Of a DNA stretch of 64,000 nt, positions 3,805 to 42,131 are shown piece by piece (the first letter of the stretch is position 1; each line of letters starts with the position of its first letter). A program made the translations under genes and the position numbers. Origin of the DNA: Christensenellaceae bacterium (GTDB taxonomy: Bacteria > Bacillota > Clostridia > Christensenellales > CAG-138); the NCBI GenBank assembly GCA_963666935.1, contig OY762936.1, positions 453,354 to 517,353 on the forward strand, in the 5' to 3' direction. Below the pieces are notes generated by a model. It was not told the DNA's origin. It did not search any database and saw nothing but the letters and a program-made list of their open reading frames with translations.

Positions 3805-5358
3805 ATGTCACTGACAGATAATAAGATCAGCACTTGGACGAATCCAATTGGTAACGAAGCGGATCAGCCTCAGCGAACGGCCTCGGAAATGAAGGCCGTT
3901 TTTGATGCCAACAGCAATGAGTTGAAGACCGCGTTAAACGCATTAATTGATGATCTCGTTGGTTCGGAAGGCTCGGCGGAGATCGGCTCGGCGGCTTTGG
4001 ACGATGTTGACGCTGGTACGCTTTATTCGCAGCTTGTTGCATTACGGGAACTGATTGACGAGCGTGTGGAAACCATTTCAATCGGCACGGTAACAACGGG
4101 CGCGGCAGGTTCTTCCGCGTCCGTTTCTGTTTCGGGGACACTTCCCAATCTTGAGTTAAACTTCACCATCCCCAAAGGTGACGCTGGCGACCCTGCGGCG
4201 GCACATGCGGCGCAACATGCATCGGATGGTGATGATCCCGTTTCACCTGCATCGATTGGAGCGCTGGAGGCAGTATCGGCAGATATCGCGCTTTATGTCG
4301 CAACGACAGGAGATGATAGTAATCCCGGAACATCTGGAGAGCCCTTCGCTACCATTCAAAAAGCTATTGATTCTACACCTAGAAACATGAATGGTTATCG
4401 CGCAACTGTCTATATTGCCGCTGGGACGTACACAGAAAATATAACCGTTGCAAATATTTCAGGTGGATCTGTTGGATTGTGCTTGACGGGGAATGTGATA
4501 ATAAATGGATACATTACTGCACTGTATAATGATACTTTGAATATTTATGGTAACAATGGAAATTTCGGAAGAACTCTGACCATAAACGCAAATAGTAGTA
4601 CATCTCCTCTGTACGCACAATATGGTATGATTCAACTCTACCAAACAGTTATCACCAACGTTAATGCAGGCTCGTATTGTACATATGCAGTTTGGGCAAA
4701 GGCTGGTTCCGTTTGCCTTGCGAATTACAATTCAACCACTCCATATTTTATTGTGTCAGGAGGAACTAGTGGTTGTATTTTGGCAAGCCACAATGGTCAA
4801 TTTTCTGCTGATGCCGTATTTACTGTGAGCGATTCTCCAATAGGCTTGCGCGCTGCGGCAGGCATGGTCCTATGCGCCTACACCGTCACTTATACGAGCA
4901 TTGCTACACAAACACGCGAGGACTACGGAGGAATTATTCTCGCAAATAGACGTGGCATTTCTTCAGTTGACTATATCGCCGCAGGCAGTAATGGCAACTT
5001 AACTTTATCAGCTGTAAAATATGCATCCCAGGCACTGAGTGCCTCCGAACAGCTCCAGGCAAGACAAAACATCAACGCCGTTGCTGCTCCAGCCACCGTA
5101 TCTGATACGGGATCCATTACCGTGACGATGGCAGACAACACAGAATACACATACACCGGCGTGACGAGCCTCGCCATTACTGGCGCGGCCGTGAACTGCC
5201 ACGGGTGGATTACCTTCGATTCATCCACTCCTACCGTGACAGACCCCACGGGCTTCTCTGGTGAATCCGGCGACGACATAGCTGACGGCGCGGCTTCCGA
5301 GGTGTGGGAGTTTAACTGCGAAAACGGCTATATCGTGTGGAAGAATTGGGGTGCTTGA
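3805..5358 (+). CDS. phage tail fibre / tailspike with a right-handed beta-helix (pectate-lyase-like) C-terminal domain
   Basis: RBS gaaagga precedes the ATG. It shares the N-terminal module with 1346-2140. The C-terminal part has repetitive N/G/T-rich beta-helix-like segments (TVYIAAGTYTENITVANISGG...). Confidence 0.6.
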   Translation: MSLTDNKISTWTNPIGNEADQPQRTASEMKAVFDANSNELKTALNALIDDLVGSEGSAEIGSAALDDVDAGTLYSQLVALRELIDERVETISIGTVTTGAAGSSASVSVSGTLPNLELNFTIPKGDAGDPAAAHAAQHASDGDDPVSPASIGALEAVSADIALYVATTGDDSNPGTSGEPFATIQKAIDSTPRNMNGYRATVYIAAGTYTENITVANISGGSVGLCLTGNVIINGYITALYNDTLNIYGNNGNFGRTLTINANSSTSPLYAQYGMIQLYQTVITNVNAGSYCTYAVWAKAGSVCLANYNSTTPYFIVSGGTSGCILASHNGQFSADAVFTVSDSPIGLRAAAGMVLCAYTVTYTSIATQTREDYGGIILANRRGISSVDYIAAGSNGNLTLSAVKYASQALSASEQLQARQNINAVAAPATVSDTGSITVTMADNTEYTYTGVTSLAITGAAVNCHGWITFDSSTPTVTDPTGFSGESGDDIADGAASEVWEFNCENGYIVWKNWGA

Positions 5359-5359
5359 T

Positions 5360-6022
5360 ATGAATAGACGAAGGGCCTTACAGCTAGCAACAGCAAATAC
5401 TCCGCGTCCAGCGGGGACGGTTCTGTTGCTCCACGCCAACGATTCAGCGGCAGACGCAACGGGAACATATTCACCTACATGGACAGGCACGGCGGCATAT
5501 GCTACTGGTAAATTTGGAAAAGCGTTTGACGTTTCTAGTGGAAATTATGTTCATGCCGGGACTACAATTGGATTTTCAAACTATCAAAACTTTACAATTG
5601 CGGGATGGTTTAAGTTTAATAATCTTTCCGGATTTGGAGGTATAGCGGCGGGAACCACAACATCTTTCAGGAACTTAACCGGGTATGCATTATATACCTG
5701 CGACACAGCAGTTCAGTTTAGAGTTTACTATTACGAATCAATGCCATTAGGCATATCAGGAGGAACGCTAGTAGTTGGACAATGGCACCACATTGCAGTT
5801 ACGCGAAGCTCTGGAACAATACGGATATTTATTAATGGAATATCCGTAGCGAGCGGTACGCTTAATGATTCTATACTTGGTGGCGTTAATTTTAGGATAG
5901 GAGCCTCGCAGCTAGTGGATAGTTATTACCGCATGGACGGCGTGGTTGATGAGTTTATTGTAGTTAAAAATGCTGCTCTTTGGACTTCCAATTTCACGCC
6001 GCCCACAAAACCCTACGCATAA
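5360..6022 (+). CDS. concanavalin A-like lectin/LamG domain protein (phage)
   Basis: Motifs GQWHHIAVTRSSGTIRIFINGI and VDEFIVVKNAALW are typical of the LamG/ConA-like fold. There is an alternative GTG start at 5351. Confidence 0.5.
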   Translation: MNRRRALQLATANTPRPAGTVLLLHANDSAADATGTYSPTWTGTAAYATGKFGKAFDVSSGNYVHAGTTIGFSNYQNFTIAGWFKFNNLSGFGGIAAGTTTSFRNLTGYALYTCDTAVQFRVYYYESMPLGISGGTLVVGQWHHIAVTRSSGTIRIFINGISVASGTLNDSILGGVNFRIGASQLVDSYYRMDGVVDEFIVVKNAALWTSNFTPPTKPYA

Positions 6023-11210: not shown

Positions 11211-11597
11211 TTATAGCGCCACTACCTCCGCAAGCTGTTTGAGCACATCGGATACCCGGTCCCATAGCTCCGCATAATCTTTTTGCAAAGCCGCGATTTC
11301 TAACGGGTACACGCTGTAGGTATTGGCATGGATTGCAACCTGATTCAAGTTAGCGGCACACCTGCGTTGCAGAGAAACAAGCTCCCGGACAGGTGCAAGA
11401 TCGACATTCAGGACGTATCCGTTCAAGGCCATCTTGCGAATGTAGGCACTCATGTTTTGTGTTCCCGCTTCCTCCATGCGGCGCTGGACAGTGTCATACT
11501 CGTCCTGGCTGACCCATACATAAACGGATGAAGTCAACACCTTTTCGGGAATTATCCGGTGCGCTGACTGCGGGGCGGCAATGGCTTTTAACCGCAA
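11211..11597 (-). CDS. mobilisation protein MobC-like (orphan relaxosome accessory protein)
   Basis: Matches the MobC family pattern: an SAYIRKMALNG segment and a LQRRCAANLNQVAIHAN NLNQ-type motif. No relaxase gene is adjacent. Confidence 0.45.
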   Translation of the reverse strand: MRLKAIAAPQSAHRIIPEKVLTSSVYVWVSQDEYDTVQRRMEEAGTQNMSAYIRKMALNGYVLNVDLAPVRELVSLQRRCAANLNQVAIHANTYSVYPLEIAALQKDYAELWDRVSDVLKQLAEVVAL

Positions 11598-31055: not shown

Positions 31056-31148
31056 TGGCGGAGAAGGAGGGATTCGAACCCTCGCGCCAGTTACCCCAGC
31101 CTACTCCCTTAGCAGGGGAGCCCCTTACAGCCACTTGGGTACTTCTCC
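31056..31148 (-). tRNA. tRNA-Ser (anticodon GCU)
   Basis: Reverse complement ggagaagtacccaagtggctgtaaggggctcccctGCTaagggag...gcgagggttcgaatccctccttctccgcca. It has a long variable arm and a 7-bp acceptor stem with G73 and encoded CCA. It is followed by hairpin terminator gggcaccctatgggtgccc. Confidence 0.85.
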
Positions 31149-31181
31149 ACAAAACTGTATCACAAAGTAAAAATGTATCGT

Positions 31182-31270
31182 TGGCGGAGAGAGAGGGATT
31201 CGAACCCCCGGTGCCTTGCGGCATCACTGGTTTTCAAGACCAGCTCCATAAACCACTCGGACATCTCTCC
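31182..31270 (-). tRNA. tRNA-Ser (anticodon UGA)
   Basis: Reverse complement ggagagatgtccgagtggtttatggagctggtctTGAaaaccag...ggggttcgaatccctctctctccgcca. Confidence 0.85.
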
Positions 31271-36170: not shown

Positions 36171-36272
36171 AGCGCGATTATATCATTGTTTTTCAGCTGC
36201 AACAAGTTAACATTTTTTGATGTTTATGTTATAATGATGATTCGAAAAAAATCAGGCGAAGCGGAGAACTGT

Positions 36273-37967
36273 ATGGAACAAAAGCAAGCGCTGGCGGCAG
36301 CCATTTCACAAAAGACCGGGATGAATCAGTCGGAGATTCTGGACTGGATCGAAATCCCCCCCAATCCAGACCTGGGCGATTATGCGTTTCCCTGCTTTCG
36401 TCTGGCAAAAGCCCTGCGCAAAGCGCCGCCTGTCATTGCGGCAGAGCTGAAAGAATCCGTGGCCCTTCCCGCGGGCATTTGCCGCGCGGAGGTTACGGGC
36501 GGTTATCTGAATTTTTTTGAGGATAAGTCCTCCTTTGCGGAGGGGATTCTCAATAAAATCCTCTCCGAAGGGGAAAAATACGGAAGCGGCAGCCTGGGCG
36601 GCGGCCGTAACGTATGTATTGACTATTCGTCCATCAATATCGCAAAGCCCTTCCATATCGGGCACCTTTCCAGCACCGCCATCGGCAACTCCCTCTATCG
36701 GATCTACGGTTTTTTGGGCTATACTCCCGTGGGCATCAACCATCTGGGGGACTGGGGAACCCAGTTCGGCAAGATGATCGTGGCGTACAAAATGTGGGGA
36801 AATCAGGCGCTGGTGGAAAAGGAGTCCGTCCGGGGTCTGGTGAAGCTGTATGTCCGCTTTCATGACGAGGCGGAAACCCATCCGGAACTCAACGACGAAG
36901 CCCGTGCCTGGTTCCGCAAAATCGAGCTTGGTGACCCGGAGGCGCTTGCGCTTTTTAACTGGTTTAAAGAAATTACCATGAAGGAAGTTTTCAATGTTTA
37001 CGACCTTCTGGGCGTGAAGTTCGACAGCTATGCCGGCGAGAGCTTTTATGAAGATAAAATGGCGCCCGTGGTGGAGAAGATGCGCGAAAAGGGCATTCTA
37101 AAAGAAGATCAAGGGGCGCAGATCGTAGATCTGTCGGAGTACGATATGCCACCGTGCATCATATTGCGCAGCGATGGTGCCACCCTGTACGCCACAAGGG
37201 ATGTGGCAACGGCCATCTACCGGAAGAATACCTACGATTTTGCCAAGTCTCTCTACGTAGTGGCCTACCAGCAGAACCTGCATTTCCGTCAGCTTTTCAA
37301 GGTGCTGGAGCTGATGGGTTATGATTGGGTCAAGGATTGCGAGCATGTGAATTTCGGCATGGTTTCCATGGAGGAGGGCACCCTTTCCACCCGCCATGGC
37401 AACGTGGTTTACCTTGAGGATGTATTGAAGGCTGCCATGGAAAAGACGCTGGAGATCATCAAAGAGAAAAGCCCCGATCTAGAAAATAAGGAAGACGCGG
37501 CAAAAGCTGTGGGCGTGGGCGCGGTGATCTGGGGCGTGCTTTATAACAGCCGCATCAAGGATATCACCTTTTCTTGGTCCAAGGCGCTCAACTTCGATGG
37601 CGAAACCGGCCCCTATGTCCAGTATACCCATGCCCGCTGCTGCAGCGTGCTGAAAAAGGCGGGCGGGTATGATAGATCCCTCGTGGACGCATCTCTCTTA
37701 ACGGACGCCGCCTCTATGGCTGTGATCAAGGCTATGGGCGGCTTCCCGGAGGCGGTGCGCGCGGCGGCGGAGAAGAACGAGCCCTATCTGGTTGCCCGGG
37801 CCGTCATGGATGTGGCGAGCACAACCAACAAATTCTACTATGACAACCGTATCATGGACGATGATCCGGCTGTGCGCAGTGCCAGGCTGGCGCTGACGGA
37901 CGCGGCCCGGACCGTGATCAAAACAGGCCTGTACCTTTTGGGGCTGCAGGCGCCGGAACGGATGTAG
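36273..37967 (+). CDS. argS: arginine--tRNA ligase
   Basis: Class I HIGH motif (PFHIGHLSS) is present, along with N-terminal Arg_tRNA_synt_N features and a C-terminal DALR-like domain ending ...ERM. Confidence 0.85.
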   Translation: MEQKQALAAAISQKTGMNQSEILDWIEIPPNPDLGDYAFPCFRLAKALRKAPPVIAAELKESVALPAGICRAEVTGGYLNFFEDKSSFAEGILNKILSEGEKYGSGSLGGGRNVCIDYSSINIAKPFHIGHLSSTAIGNSLYRIYGFLGYTPVGINHLGDWGTQFGKMIVAYKMWGNQALVEKESVRGLVKLYVRFHDEAETHPELNDEARAWFRKIELGDPEALALFNWFKEITMKEVFNVYDLLGVKFDSYAGESFYEDKMAPVVEKMREKGILKEDQGAQIVDLSEYDMPPCIILRSDGATLYATRDVATAIYRKNTYDFAKSLYVVAYQQNLHFRQLFKVLELMGYDWVKDCEHVNFGMVSMEEGTLSTRHGNVVYLEDVLKAAMEKTLEIIKEKSPDLENKEDAAKAVGVGAVIWGVLYNSRIKDITFSWSKALNFDGETGPYVQYTHARCCSVLKKAGGYDRSLVDASLLTDAASMAVIKAMGGFPEAVRAAAEKNEPYLVARAVMDVASTTNKFYYDNRIMDDDPAVRSARLALTDAARTVIKTGLYLLGLQAPERM

Positions 37968-38017: not shown

Positions 38018-39286
38018 ATGTTGGACATTAAGCGGATCCGACAGAACCCAGAGGCGCTCAAAGAAGCCATGCGCAAACGCCGCAACAAGGGCGCGGACGT
38101 GAGCGCGCTCTTAGAGTTGGACGCGGTCCGCAGGCAGGTGATGCAGAAGGCGGAAACGCTCAAGGCGCGCCGAAACGAGGTTTCGGCCAAAATCCCCCAA
38201 ATGAAGAAGGCAGGGGAGGATACGGTTGCCCTCATGGCAGAGATGAAAGAAATCGCCAATCAGATCAAAGAACTGGACGACCGGCTCGCCGTCATGGATG
38301 CGGAGCTGGAATCCATGCTCATGAATATCCCCAACATTCCCCATGAGAGCGTACCTGAGGGAAAGGACGATACTGATAATGAGGAAATCCGCCGGTGGGG
38401 TGATCCTGCGCAATTCGGCTTTGCGCCAAAGGCCCATTGGGAAATCGGCGAGAACCTAAATATTTTGGATTTTGCCGCGGCGGGCAAGATCACCGGCGCG
38501 CGCTTTACCGTGTATCGGGGGCTGGGCTCCCGGCTGGAGCGTTCCATTATCAATTACTTTTTGGACACCCATGCCCAAAATGGTTATACGGAAATATTTC
38601 CTCCCTATATGGTGAACCGGGCTTCCATGACCGGTACGGGCCAGCTCCCCAAGTTTGAGGATGACGCCTTCAAGGTGGCCGGAACGGATTATTTCCTGAT
38701 CCCCACTGCCGAGGTTCCCGTCACCAATATGCTTCGGGGCGATATCGTGGGAGGTGATCTGCTGCCCATCAAGTACTGTGCCTACAGCGCGTGTTTTCGC
38801 AGTGAGGCAGGCAGCGCCGGCCGGGATACCCGGGGCCTTATCCGCCAGCACCAGTTTAACAAGGTGGAGCTTGTGAAGTTCAGCAAGCCCGAAGATTCCT
38901 ATGCGGAGTTGGAGCAGCTCACAAACGACGCGGAACGGGTGCTTCAGGGGTTGGGCCTGCCCTACCGGGTGGTGAACCTCTCTACCGGAGACCTTGGCTT
39001 TAGCAGCGCCAAAACTTACGATATTGAGGTTTGGATGCCCAGCTACAACCGCTATGTGGAAATCAGCTCCTGCTCCAACTTTGAGGACTTCCAAGCGCGT
39101 CGGGCGCAGATCCGGTTCCGCCGGGAAAAGGGCGGCAAGGCTGAACTGGTCCATACCCTCAACGGCAGTGGCGTAGCTGTGGGCCGTACTGTGGCCGCAA
39201 TCCTGGAAAACTGCCAGCAAGCCGACGGTAGCGTTAAAGTTCCGGAGGCGCTTGTGAAGTACATGGGCTGCGAGGTCATTCGGTAG
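38018..39286 (+). CDS. serS: serine--tRNA ligase
   Basis: N-terminal [12 protein letters not shown] plus coiled-coil arm. Class II motifs are present ([30 protein letters not shown]). Confidence 0.9.
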
Positions 39287-39446
39287 TACCGATCACGGAC
39301 TTAATGGAACCCAACCTGGTTCGCTTCAGGTCTGCTTCAAGCGCTGCTGAATTCGCAAAGCACGCTGAATCGGCATACACGCCGGTTGCGGGAAGTGGGA
39401 TATCCATGATATAATTTTGTAATCTGATTGAAGGGGAGTTAGAAAG

Positions 39447-39467
39447 ATGCGCAATTTTTCCTGCTGA
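39447..39467 (+). other. candidate 6-aa leader peptide uORF (MRNFSC) upstream of the ABC-F gene
   Basis: RBS gaaggggag sits 7 nt upstream. ATG CGC AAT TTT TCC TGC TGA. Confidence 0.25.
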
Positions 39468-39611
39468 TTTACAGGGCATAGCGATGCTGTGCAGGCGTTA
39501 TTTTCACGCCGCCGGTTTTGTTGTGCCATCGCAGGAAAGTTGAAACATCTTTTGCTCATCCGGGATCCTCTTTGTACCGTTCTTGTGTGGTACGAAAGCT
39601 GTGTCGTTATG

Positions 39612-39650
39612 GGCTGCGGGAATTAACTTTCTTGCAGCCTTTTCTTTTTT
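39612..39650 (+). terminator. intrinsic terminator/attenuator hairpin in the ABC-F 5' leader
   Basis: ggctgc-gggaattaactttctt-gcagcc followed by ttttctttttt. It lies immediately upstream of RBS gcaggagg and the ATG at 39673. Confidence 0.45.
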
Positions 39651-39672
39651 GCACGCAGGAGGATACGAGAAT

Positions 39673-41163
39673 ATGTCGTTGATCAATATCACAAATCTTA
39701 CTTTTGCATATGAAGGCAGCTACGATAACATATTTGAAAATATCAATTTTCAAATCGACACGGATTGGAAGCTGGGTTTTACGGGGCGAAATGGTCGGGG
39801 AAAAACTACGCTTTTGAACCTGCTGATGGGGAAATACGCCTATGAGGGCAGTATTTTAGCCAGCGTTTCCTTTGAGTATTTTCCCTATGCGGTCAAAGAT
39901 CCCGAGGCGGATACGCTGGAAGTCGTGAACTCAATTCTCGCAGATTATGAGCAATGGCGGCTGCACAAAGAGATGAACCTGCTTGACGTTCCCGCCGACG
40001 TGCTTTTCCGCCCCTTCTCCACTTTGTCCAATGGGGAACAGACGAAGGTGCTTTTGGCCGTCCTCTTCCTGAAGGGGAACAGCTTTCTTTTGATTGACGA
40101 ACCCACAAACCACTTGGACATGGAGGCCCGAAGGATTGTGGGCGACTACCTGAACGCCAAAAAGGGATTCATCCTTGTTTCCCATGACCGGGAGTTTTTG
40201 GACCGCTGCGTCGATCACATTTTTTCCATCAATAAAACCAACATTGAGGTGAAAAAAGGCAACTTCTCCTCATGGTGGCATAACAAAAAACTTCAGGACG
40301 GCTTTGAGATGGCGGAAAATGAGAGGCTGAAAAAGGACATCAGAAGGCTGGAGGAAGCGGCGAAGCAGACATCCCGATGGTCCGATCAGATGGAAAAAAC
40401 GAAAAAGGGAACGAAAATTTCTGGGCTTAGGCCCGACCGGGGCCATCTCGGACACAAGGCGGCCAAGATGATGCAGCGCTCCAAAAGCATGGAGGGCAGG
40501 CTGCAGGCTGCCATGGATCAAAAATCAAATCTGCTCAAAAACATTGAGGTGGGCGAAACACTCAAAATTCATCCCCTAGCCTATCATGCAGATACGCTTT
40601 TTCGCCTGGAAGATGTTTCCGTTTTCTATGGTGGCAGAACGGTCTGCTGGAATGTCAGCTTTGTGATTCAGGCCGGGGATCGGATTGCGTTATGCGGGGA
40701 AAATGGGACCGGTAAGACCAGCCTCCTTAAACTCATTTGCGGCGAGGAAATTCCCTTCAAGGGTGCGCTAAAAAAGGGAAGTGGGCTAAAGATTTCCTAT
40801 GTTCCCCAGGACACTTCGTACTTGATGGGCAATCTGACCGATTTTGCAAGGGAAGGCAACATTGATGAAAGCTTGTTTAAGACGATCCTTCGAAAATTTG
40901 ATTTTCCCCGAGTTCAATTCGAAAAAGATATGCGGGATTTCAGCGCCGGGCAAAAGAAAAAGGCCCTGGTTGCCAGAAGCCTTTGCGAACAGGCCCATCT
41001 GTATGTCTGGGACGAACCGCTCAATTATGTGGACGTCATCTCTCGGATGCAGATTGAGGAGCTTTTAAAAGAATTTGCGCCGACGGTTCTTTTTGTGGAA
41101 CACGACAGCGCATTTTCCAGCCATATTGCCACAAAAACCGTGGAATTGCAGCTTGCCGATTAA
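39673..41163 (+). CDS. ABC-F family ATPase (two tandem ABC domains, no TMD), possibly antibiotic-resistance (ARE, Lsa/Sal/VmlR-like) type
   Basis: Walker A motifs GRNGRGKTT and GENGTGKTS are present. Signature motifs LSNGEQ and FSAGQKKK are present. Walker B motifs LLIDEPTNHLD and YVWDEPLNYVD are present. A charged inter-domain linker is present. A leader attenuator lies upstream. Confidence 0.8.
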   Translation: MSLINITNLTFAYEGSYDNIFENINFQIDTDWKLGFTGRNGRGKTTLLNLLMGKYAYEGSILASVSFEYFPYAVKDPEADTLEVVNSILADYEQWRLHKEMNLLDVPADVLFRPFSTLSNGEQTKVLLAVLFLKGNSFLLIDEPTNHLDMEARRIVGDYLNAKKGFILVSHDREFLDRCVDHIFSINKTNIEVKKGNFSSWWHNKKLQDGFEMAENERLKKDIRRLEEAAKQTSRWSDQMEKTKKGTKISGLRPDRGHLGHKAAKMMQRSKSMEGRLQAAMDQKSNLLKNIEVGETLKIHPLAYHADTLFRLEDVSVFYGGRTVCWNVSFVIQAGDRIALCGENGTGKTSLLKLICGEEIPFKGALKKGSGLKISYVPQDTSYLMGNLTDFAREGNIDESLFKTILRKFDFPRVQFEKDMRDFSAGQKKKALVARSLCEQAHLYVWDEPLNYVDVISRMQIEELLKEFAPTVLFVEHDSAFSSHIATKTVELQLAD

Positions 41164-41195: not shown

Positions 41196-42131
41196 TTATC
41201 TGCGACGTCCGCCCCCCGAGGATAGGTCGTATGCTGCTATGCACAAATCGCCGCAGACCACTGCGTTTTGCAAGGCATTGGCCACCGCGTTCACCATTCC
41301 GGCGGAAGAGAATGTAGCCCCGGATACAGCATCGACTTGCAAGGACTGGTCTGAAATAATGGTATCTAAGATGGATTTTGCGTAGCTGAAATACTGCGGC
41401 GTTTCATTTTCGCTCAGCACGGAAATTCCTGTCACCTGCCCGCCCAAAACGGTGACGGATACCATGATGTTGCCGTTATAGCCGGTCGCAGAGCCTTCAT
41501 ACGTTCCATCTTTGAGCTGCGCGCCGGAAAATAGGGCCGTGGCTTGTTCGATCACGCCGGAAAGCTGGCCTTGGTCCGATGGTGCCGGGGTTGCAGGCGC
41601 GGGAGTGGTAACCGGAGGGGTGGTGCTGCCCGCATCGGAAGGAGGCATCGAAGCGGCTGCGCTGAATTTTTCCGGAACCTCGATGACCACAAGCTGGGTT
41701 TCGTCGGCCGCACTTTTCGGAAAGAGCTGATTATCTATTTGAATGCCTACATCAAGAAGATGAATGGCCAGCAGGCCGATCATAACCACCGTAAGCACGC
41801 GGTGTACGGGCATCCATGTTTTTTTGAATTTTTTGCGCAGCAGATAGTAGCTTGCCGCCAGCAGAATCGCAACGGCAAAACAGGCGGTGCCCCAGTTCCA
41901 TGTAAAAAGCACCGGCGCAATCATGGCATCCAATATGTTGACGGATGCAAAATTGCCCGCCAGAATACCATGCAAAAGTCCGGTTAAAATCAGCAGCTTT
42001 CCGGAGGGAATATGGTGCTTTGAAAAAAAACGGTTCAGCTTTTTGATTTTGCTGATCCTCGCAATGTACTTCAAAGCTGTAATGGCGGTGAAAACCACCG
42101 CAAGCCAGGCCAATATTTGGCTAAGCAGCAT
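41196..42131 (-). CDS. membrane protein with N-terminal multi-TM (His-containing) domain and C-terminal extracytoplasmic FMN-binding domain
   Basis: FMN_bind motif VDAVSGATFSSAG is present. There are 4-5 N-terminal TM helices and a Pro/Thr-rich linker. Confidence 0.55.
   Translation of the reverse strand: MLLSQILAWLAVVFTAITALKYIARISKIKKLNRFFSKHHIPSGKLLILTGLLHGILAGNFASVNILDAMIAPVLFTWNWGTACFAVAILLAASYYLLRKKFKKTWMPVHRVLTVVMIGLLAIHLLDVGIQIDNQLFPKSAADETQLVVIEVPEKFSAAASMPPSDAGSTTPPVTTPAPATPAPSDQGQLSGVIEQATALFSGAQLKDGTYEGSATGYNGNIMVSVTVLGGQVTGISVLSENETPQYFSYAKSILDTIISDQSLQVDAVSGATFSSAGMVNAVANALQNAVVCGDLCIAAYDLSSGGGRRR

Follow-up and report, generated by a model that had tools for sequence, protein, structure and literature searches.

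A probable ribosome-mediated transcription attenuator in the leader of a chromosomal Lsa-like ABC-F gene

Attenuation that depends on a short upstream open reading frame (uORF) has been described for vmlR, vga(A), lmo0919, msrD, lmrC, cplR, are5sc and rppA (PMC10201436; PMC12421871; PMC8601186). The architecture of vmlR from B. subtilis, an ARE2 gene, has been established experimentally by Takada et al. 2022. Its uORF lies in an anti-antiterminator, a middle hairpin sits at the apex of the antiterminator, a terminator is present and the Shine-Dalgarno (SD) sequence is sequestered (PMC9226507). The vmlR uORF encodes MIN. A toeprint was obtained at its start codon, and experiments showed that the SD and AUG of the uORF are both required (PMC9226507). 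Obana et al. 2023 established uORF-dependent induction of cplR in C. difficile (PMC10201436). In Bacillus thuringiensis the LRR attenuator of rppA is induced by retapamulin, virginiamycin M, chloramphenicol and other compounds (Cai et al., PMC8601186). A 2026 metagenome study found that predicted upstream terminators are frequent ahead of ribosomal-protection genes (PMC13613805). For LsaA, we found only a predicted MAGN uORF in the searchable literature (PMC10201436; PMC12421871; PMC8601186).

We examined a locus of this kind in a stretch of 64,000 nucleotides, which we call the window. An Lsa-like (ARE3) gene for ribosomal protection lies on the + strand at 39673-41163, as do all of the leader elements described below. 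We argue with good confidence that the region ahead of it is a ribosome-mediated transcription attenuator controlling an Lsa-type ARE ABC-F gene. An earlier note had proposed ribosome-mediated attenuation of an ARE ABC-F gene here. The proposal is supported in silico by a uORF, a terminator, a mutually exclusive antiterminator, covariation and the class of the protein. The switch is of a known type, the ribosome-mediated attenuation of vmlR and cplR. What is new is that it is a conserved and recognisable element of most Lsa-family genes examined, lsa(E) included.

The gene, which we call lsa, is monocistronic. Upstream are argS (36186-37967) and serS (38018-39286), and a 386-nt spacer separates serS from lsa. 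The next gene after lsa encodes an FMN-binding membrane protein (41196-42131) and is convergent to it. The window lsa gene is chromosomal, and the order argS-serS-lsa is kept in its relatives. It must be noted that the mechanical list of open reading frames runs the ABC-F frame upstream to a TTG at 39583, across the terminator. We place the start at the ATG at 39673, because the homologues all start with MSLINI and because an AGGAGG Shine-Dalgarno sequence (39657-39662) lies 10 nt 5' of this ATG.

Profile models and alignments make the window ABC-F an antibiotic-resistance protein of the Lsa clade and not a housekeeping protein. PF00005 occurs twice in its 496 aa, with Walker A motifs GRNGRGKT and GENGTGKT and Walker B motifs LLIDEPTNHLD and YVWDEPLNYVD. 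We recognise an ARE ABC-F by two ABC domains with a linker, the lack of a membrane domain and a score above the cut-off of NF000355, the NCBIfam model for ribosomal-protection ABC-F proteins. The window protein has this domain layout and scores 473.7 bits against that model, above the cut-off of 380. The best subfamily model by far is Lsa. The next is Sal at 232 bits, and Vga, Msr, CplR and OptrA are also far below. The score with the NCBIfam Lsa model (NF000167, ABCF_Lsa_all) is 738.9 bits, 11 bits under the curated cut-off of 750. We therefore call the protein Lsa-like and a member of the Lsa clade rather than a curated Lsa. The housekeeping set that we considered was EttA, Uup, YbiT and YheS. 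The cut-offs of the housekeeping models are missed widely (176 against 599 bits for EttA, 188 against 900 for Uup, 231 against 762 for PRK15064), so the protein groups with the AREs, as the earlier note had expected, and not with EttA or Uup.

Alignments agree with this placement. The plasmid-borne Lsa(E) is 63% identical to the window protein over 494 aa with no gaps. Among solved structures the best match is 7nhk, the ribosome-bound Lsa(A) of E. faecalis (E = 3e-123), with residues 1-492 aligned. The gaps in that alignment are all small: one in NBD1, one after NBD1, one of 3 residues in the linker and one in NBD2. Our test for the Lsa subfamily was colinear similarity over the full length, including the inter-domain linker (ARD), and both Lsa(E) and Lsa(A) show it. 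Database relatives at 68-70% identity carry the name Lsa family ribosomal protection proteins.

The earlier note gave this gene a leader of 380 bp, which is the whole of the serS-lsa spacer. The transcribed leader is better put at about 250 nt, because conservation in close relatives starts only at a -35 box at 39386. These relatives are three metagenome contigs (L001-L003) with the same argS-serS-lsa-FMN_bind context and proteins 79-86% identical to that of the window. Upstream of the -35 box their spacers no longer align with the window. The stretch from 39290 to 39371 is variable or missing in relatives; L001 lacks it, and in L002 a tandem-repeat array of 460 bp interrupts its place. The promoter at 39386-39415 consists of a -35 box TTGCGG (39386-39391) and an extended -10 box TGaTATAAT (39407-39415), with 15 nt from the -35 box to the TG extension. 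Both boxes are kept in L001-L003. In the wider family, a -10 box with 5 or more of the 6 positions matched lies 8-32 nt 5' of the uORF SD in 55 of 70 leaders, and 32 of these 55 have the TGn extension. A generic promoter scan did not call the promoter at 39386-39415. Transcription probably starts near 39422, to judge from the position of these boxes. The leader RNA has a minimum free energy of -99.1 kcal/mol, with a z-score of -5.1 against shuffled versions.

The uORF was predicted correctly in the earlier note. It occupies 39447-39467 and reads ATG CGC AAT TTT TCC TGC TGA, which encodes MRNFSC and a stop. Its SD, GAAGGGGAG, is at 39430-39438, and the GGAG core (39435-39438) is followed by the ATG after 8 nt. 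This GGAG, part of the lower stem of the anti-antiterminator, is conserved to at least 90% in an alignment of 62 leaders. An SD-led start codon is found in essentially all of 71 full leaders, 7-10 nt (11 in one) 5' of UUUCUUGC. The start codon is kept in two different registers, 8-13 nt after GGAG, which points to selection for initiation. The peptide is another matter. In 29 of the 71 leaders the uORF is a bare ATG-stop. Most others have 5-7 codons (the overall range is 1-7), and the peptides include Mxx[F/L/I]SC, MDISC, MDSFLA and others. One leader (L046) encodes an identical MRNFSC, and close relatives have MRKFSC.

We considered a meaning of MRNFSC at the level of the peptide and rejected it. 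The codons for FSC are also an RNA strand, UUUCYUGC, which pairs with a downstream segment, and this strand is kept even if the open reading frame is ATG-TAA or runs in another frame (MDSFLA). To judge from the comparison of leaders, sensing probably does not depend on the peptide MRNFSC. With the start codon kept and the peptide variable, selection acts on initiation at this position, in line with drugs that halt the ribosome on the start codon or directly after it.

The intrinsic terminator is at 39611-39650. Its stem (39611-39640) has 12 bp closed by a 6-nt loop, UUAACU, and is followed by the U-tract TTTCTTTTTT at 39641-39650. Six of the pairs are G-C and the rest are A-U and G-U. The hairpin and U-tract reported in the earlier note are thus real, while its 6-bp stem falls short of the 12 bp found. 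Its distance of about 15 nt to the ABC-F ribosome-binding site also needs correction: the U-tract ends 6 nt before AGGAGG. A simple terminator scan is not significant alone, with 6 sites against 4.3 expected from shuffles. Around the terminator is a flanking helix (39599-39658), in which CUGUGU (39599-39604) pairs with ACGCAG (39653-39658) and which adjoins the lsa SD. Further upstream is an anti-SD, AUCCUC (39565-39570), that is predicted in the minimum-energy structure to pair with GAGGAU (39659-39664) in the lsa ribosome-binding site. The UAUCCU/AGGAUA pairing is kept in most leaders. The lsa SD is predicted to be paired, with a P(unpaired) of 0.03 in the window.

In the minimum-energy fold of the leader, segment 1 pairs with segment 2 and encloses an apical hairpin, and SL-2 and the terminator come next. 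Segment 1 (39433-39466) is the 5' strand of the anti-antiterminator helix and contains the uORF SD, the start codon and UUUUCCUGC. The SD and start codon of the uORF are buried in this fully folded OFF structure. The apical hairpin of SL-1 and then a conserved U-run, GGUUUUGUUG (39514-39523), make up 39475-39527 in the same fold. Segment 2 (39530-39561) is the switch strand, GCAGGAAAGUUGA..UCUU..GCUCAUCC, which pairs with either segment 1 or the terminator. The SL-2 hairpin (39571-39596), again from the minimum-energy structure, is at the apex of the antiterminator. The sequence of the apical hairpin varies, and the TTTT(G/A)TT run is invariant or nearly so. By analogy with vmlR (PMC9226507), the hairpin and the UUUU(G/A)UU run may make a pause site for RNA polymerase, which would let a ribosome load before segment 2 is made. 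A perfect NusG pause motif, TTNTTT, is not present in the window, and GGTTTTGTTG is an imperfect match there.

The earlier note asked whether folding would give mutually exclusive antiterminator and terminator structures. An antiterminator is found, and it is the minimum-energy structure when the uORF arm is unavailable. Positions 39531-39559 of segment 2 are complementary to 39609-39635 of the terminator. The pairings are GCAGGAAAGUUGA (39531-39543) with UUAACUUUCUUGC (39623-39635) of the loop and 3' arm, UCUU with GGGA of the 5' arm, and GCUCAU with AUGGGC at the 5' flank. If segment 1 is removed, the antiterminator is the minimum-energy structure in the window at -36.4 kcal/mol, against -35.3 kcal/mol for a forced terminator. 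The two are nearly isoenergetic, being 1.1 kcal/mol apart. Removing segment 1 altogether is a clearer test than masking a 30-nt ribosome footprint. With only the footprint masked, the terminator is still the minimum-energy structure in the window and in L001, and not in L002 and L003. In these last two the antiterminator becomes the minimum-energy structure when the uORF is masked. Two other leaders, L010 and L005, favour the terminator by 2-2.6 kcal/mol. Since these energy margins are small or adverse, the ON/OFF decision must be kinetic, as in other attenuators. In a nascent RNA that ends before the terminator 3' arm, segment 2 already pairs with the 5' flank. The antiterminator can therefore nucleate first.

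Base-pair changes across the 62 aligned leaders support both structures. For the OFF structure, taken as the anti-antiterminator, the terminator and the flanking helix, 85% of alignment cells are paired, against 47-53% in slid controls. It has 25 pairs with double changes, and 0 of 500 shuffles were as high. The ON structure is paired in 87% of cells (40-59% in slid controls) and has 12 double-change pairs. Much of the antiterminator helix is invariant and few of its columns covary, so its statistical support is thinner than that of the terminator. The terminator is paired in 99.7% of cells and 5 of its 12 pairs are double-changed, one of them being GC in 35 leaders and AU in 26. The flanking helix is paired in 88.7% of cells and covaries as CUGUA/UACAG, CCGUG/CACGG and CUGUG/CGCAG. 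RNAalifold independently predicts the UCUUGC:GCAAGA core between segments 1 and 2 as well as the terminator.

The loop of the terminator is also conserved, and it changes in step with the 3' end of segment 2 (GAUAU/GUAUC in L034, for example), which a hairpin alone would not require. In L002 and L003, a synonymous change of TCC to TCT in the uORF is matched by GCAGGAAAG to GCAAGAAAG downstream, which is a compensatory C to U and G to A. SL-2 is replaced in these two by a different sequence, and that sequence also forms a hairpin. The sequence elements, both structures, the conservation, the covariation and the protein class are thus established in silico. The leader has a conserved SD-led uORF, a terminator before the gene, an exclusive antiterminator and an anti-antiterminator that overlaps the uORF, and these are the in silico marks of an attenuator.

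Scanning genomes yielded 80 loci of the Lsa family (63-70% identity) in Paenibacillus, Brevibacillus, Cohnella, Sporomusaceae, Clostridia and others. Most of these have the same terminator at -60 to -30 and an SD-led uORF near -205 to -240. A profile made from the 62 aligned leaders matches upstream of lsa in 73 of 86 sources; the other 13 Lsa-family loci lack the leader. In the 64-kb window the profile has one match only, at 39432-39649 (E = 1e-31). A pattern scan that is independent of the protein and uses the three complementary segments gave 120 metagenome matches. In 108 of them the match is followed after 20-180 nt by the start of an lsa homologue. Three are chance matches, and in 4 the sequence is too short for a decision. 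The terminator is 140-180 nt from the gene in lsa(E) and at 27 of these 108 loci.

The leader is also present before plasmid lsa(E) and before an lsa on a plasmid of Clostridium tagluense. A blastn search of plasmids with the window leader gave no match. The profile shows that these two plasmid leaders are homologous to it, so the window leader is too divergent for blastn. We find serS upstream only in L001-L003 and in one further locus (L080). This implies that the leader belongs to lsa and travels with it. We found no prior description of a shared Lsa leader in the searchable literature, though one may exist elsewhere.

These data can be read in ways other than transcription attenuation by a ribosome. 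The best of these is that control is mainly translational. The lsa SD would be sequestered by the anti-SD (39565-39570) and the flanking helix, with the terminator playing a minor part. The predicted pairing of the lsa SD, with conserved UAUCCU and CUGUA elements as its partners, is in line with this. There is also a precedent in cplR, where the uORF is reported to be essential but premature termination is not (PMC10201436). However, folding with the uORF masked predicts no opening of the SD. Across 64 leaders its mean P(unpaired) is 0.19 OFF and 0.18 ON, so the ON state is not predicted to free it. Conservation and covariation in the leader are both strongest in the terminator stem and U-tract. 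A terminator that lies 140-180 nt away from the gene has no means of sequestering the SD, and yet it is kept. We consider mainly translational control improbable. A second, translational layer that acts through the anti-SD on top of attenuation is possible in this structural model.

It is still less probable that the leader is a riboswitch-like attenuator that binds a ligand or a protein, with a uORF that is untranslated or whose translation is irrelevant to switching. Points in its favour are the length of the leader, its high degree of structure, its conserved sequence, the burial of the uORF SD and start codon in the OFF fold and the lack of conservation in the uORF peptide. But no Rfam family matches the leader even at E <= 10, where 39200-39750 gives only chance-level hits to MicA, a snoRNA and SSRC8_2, all with E > 3. 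At the Rfam gathering score the whole 64-kb window gives two tRNAs only. Each conserved block can be assigned to the SD or start codon of the uORF, to one of the three mutually complementary segments, to a U-run or to the lsa SD. Sequence and length both vary in the apical regions, where a binding pocket would potentially be. A uORF that is irrelevant would not be expected to retain its start codon in two registers 8-13 nt after GGAG, and translation of the uORF is needed in homologous systems (PMC9226507, PMC10201436).

The weakest alternative, that the hairpin at 39611-39650 is the serS terminator, the uORF is a chance occurrence and the ABC-F gene is constitutive from an unrecognised promoter, can draw on the lack of any other terminator-like site between the end of serS (39286) and the hairpin, on the frequency of short SD-led open reading frames by chance and on a terminator scan that is not enriched overall over shuffles, but it is scarcely credible. 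The extended -10 promoter that follows serS and precedes the uORF is conserved, and the interval from the U-tract (39650) to the SD (39657) is too short to hold another. The leader accompanies lsa at loci without serS upstream and on plasmids, L002 and L003 have separate serS terminators further upstream, and an SD and start codon are kept in nearly all 71 leaders.

We return to ribosome-mediated attenuation as the preferred reading. For its working steps we infer the transcription start, termination, ribosome stalling, induction and the inducing drugs. The promoter at 39386-39415 would give a leader of about 250 nt, from which the SD and the 6-codon uORF would emerge first. Without drug, a ribosome would translate the uORF and depart. 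Segment 1 would then pair with segment 2 in a long anti-antiterminator hairpin, the 12-bp terminator would form, and transcription would end 6 nt before the lsa SD. With a PTC drug (a lincosamide, streptogramin A or a pleuromutilin) the ribosome would be arrested at or just after the uORF start and would cover segment 1. Segment 2 would be free, and its first partners would be the terminator 5' flank (GCUCAU:AUGGGC) and 5' arm (UCUU:GGGA). The pairing would then extend to the loop and 3' arm (GCAGGAAAGUUGA:UUAACUUUCUUGC) and place SL-2 at the apex. With the terminator blocked, RNA polymerase would read into lsa.

One can go further and regard these leaders as a single ancient riboregulator family, conserved in sequence and without an Rfam model. 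This 'Lsa leader' would occur before chromosomal lsa genes of Clostridia, Negativicutes and Bacilli, before plasmid lsa(E) and before some cfr-family genes, and would be a peptide-independent sensor that needs only an initiating ribosome. We put this forward tentatively, as a proposal that falls a little short of an even chance. If it is true, the Lsa leader is a portable sensor of PTC inhibitors that serves two unrelated resistance mechanisms. The uORF is AUG-stop in about 40% of the leaders, and such variants argue against the need for a specific nascent peptide in sensing. As a separate observation, a few metagenome contigs have the same leader directly before cfr-family 23S rRNA methyltransferase genes.

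For the genome at hand, the sequence suggests that intrinsic resistance to lincosamides, streptogramin A and pleuromutilins is encoded on the chromosome and is probably inducible. Since the same leader stands before most Lsa-family genes examined, among them the clinically spreading lsa(E), a common RNA switch probably makes these genes inducible by drugs. The leader is conserved enough to be found with a simple profile or pattern and might serve to pick out inducible resistance genes in metagenomic data. The leader could also help to predict which new PTC-targeting drugs trigger resistance and which do not.

It is worth setting this leader against the known systems. The likeness to vmlR is one of architecture. 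Both have their own promoter, a leader of about 220-250 nt and a very short SD-led uORF in the first stem-loop. In both a middle hairpin becomes the apex of the antiterminator, the terminator is just before the gene and the SD of the gene is paired. Both are proposed to sense drugs that stall initiating ribosomes. They differ in the protein, which is VmlR (ARE2) in one case and Lsa (ARE3) in the other, and in the uORF, which has 3 codons (MIN) in vmlR and 6 (MRNFSC) in the window. The uORF SD is single-stranded in vmlR and inside a helix in the window leader, and the perfect NusG TTNTTT pause motif is missing from the window. By description the rppA leader is alike: it too precedes a ribosomal-protection ABC-F gene and switches between terminator and antiterminator in a ribosome-dependent way (PMC8601186).

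With cplR and LsaA the locus shares the setting of a Firmicutes ARE ABC-F gene with a short uORF (MR[I/M] in cplR, predicted MAGN in LsaA), a terminator and an anti-SD, and probably the same drug classes (PLSA). However, cplR belongs to the ARE1 subfamily. For E. faecalis LsaA, the uORF4u-predicted consensus from relatives of at least 80% identity is MAGN, whereas the leaders described here have Mxx[F/L/I]SC or ATG-stop (PMC10201436). The lsa(E) of E. faecium Aus0085 p3 (CP006623.1), a plasmid gene for resistance to lincosamides, pleuromutilins and streptogramin A, has a uORF encoding MYNFSC, the segment 2 GCAAGAAAGUU and the terminator GAGCCGUAAGAA..CUUUCUUGCGGCUU. Its terminator is separated from the gene by about 150 nt more than in the window. 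It is also carried on mobile elements and followed by lnu(B), while the window gene is chromosomal.

A cfr-family gene lies 250-350 nt 3' of lsa in several Paenibacillus genomes (L019, L022, L025, L045 and L058, at about 4736-5850) and metagenome contigs (L146, L162, L188 and L195). These genes were found using tblastn and have 54-73% identity to the Cfr of metagenome contig L169. Such a pairing puts target protection and target methylation side by side for the same drug classes. Locus L113 has the order leader, decayed lsa, decayed cfr-like gene.

There are also 3 metagenome contigs where a gene for a Cfr-family 23S rRNA A2503-C8 methyltransferase replaces lsa directly downstream of the leader. 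They are L143 (6814-8330), L169 (on the reverse strand of the stored locus; match at 3987-4135 after reorientation) and L204 (match at 11396-11544 after reorientation). The leader in these contigs has an ATG-TAA uORF, segment 2 (the proposed switch strand) and the terminator. The Cfr-family gene behind it scores 610.8 bits against TIGR04432, where the cut-off is 550. This arrangement may have originated by the loss of lsa from an lsa-cfr tandem.

Start-stop uORFs (ATG-TAA, ATG-TAG or ATG-TGA) are present in 29 of the 71 full leaders, 11-12 nt past GGAG and at about -205 to -226 from lsa (L004, L008, L012-L014, L017-L019, L028, L033, L035, L036, L038, L040 and others). The leaders that have them come for the most part from Paenibacillus, Cohnella and Brevibacillus. 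A GTG-TAG uORF is found in L052 and L059.

No copy of the leader was detected within 3 kb upstream of 13 Lsa-family loci (~64-67% identity; L023, L024, L030, L031, L037, L041, L047, L064, L067, L071, L073, L074 and L078). Most of these are also missing a terminator-like site before the gene.

In the window, the mechanical ORF list starts the ABC-F ORF at TTG 39583. This gives 526 aa, and the added stretch (39583-39672) runs through the terminator and U-tract. Automatic annotation could mis-call the ABC-F start. Across the whole window (1-64000), Rfam at the gathering threshold calls two tRNAs and nothing else. Neither argS nor serS has a T-box leader call in front of it. The site listed with these observations is 31059-31270 (-). 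Close relatives L002 and L003 each have a clear serS terminator, whereas the window has no terminator-like site between serS and the lsa leader. L002 has a tandem-repeat array inserted between its serS terminator and the lsa promoter (1659-2122; period ~46/93 nt, 5-10 copies, 66-76% matches). The array is called as an ORF of 248 aa, for which Pfam gives no match, and the window has no array of this kind. In L003 the promoter, the uORF (here MRKISC) and the apical hairpin occur a second time at 2046-2196, as a partial tandem copy directly 5' of the complete leader. Either the duplication is genuine or two strains were joined into a chimera during assembly.

The leader is retained at plasmid lsa(E) in E. 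faecium Aus0085 (plasmid p3, CP006623.1; L084 250-700), with the uORF MYNFSC and the terminator GAGCCGTAAGAA...CTTTCTTGCGGCTT. Here ~150 nt of additional sequence separates the terminator from the gene. Among the 108 metagenome loci where lsa follows the leader, 27 share this spacing, with 140-180 nt between terminator and gene.
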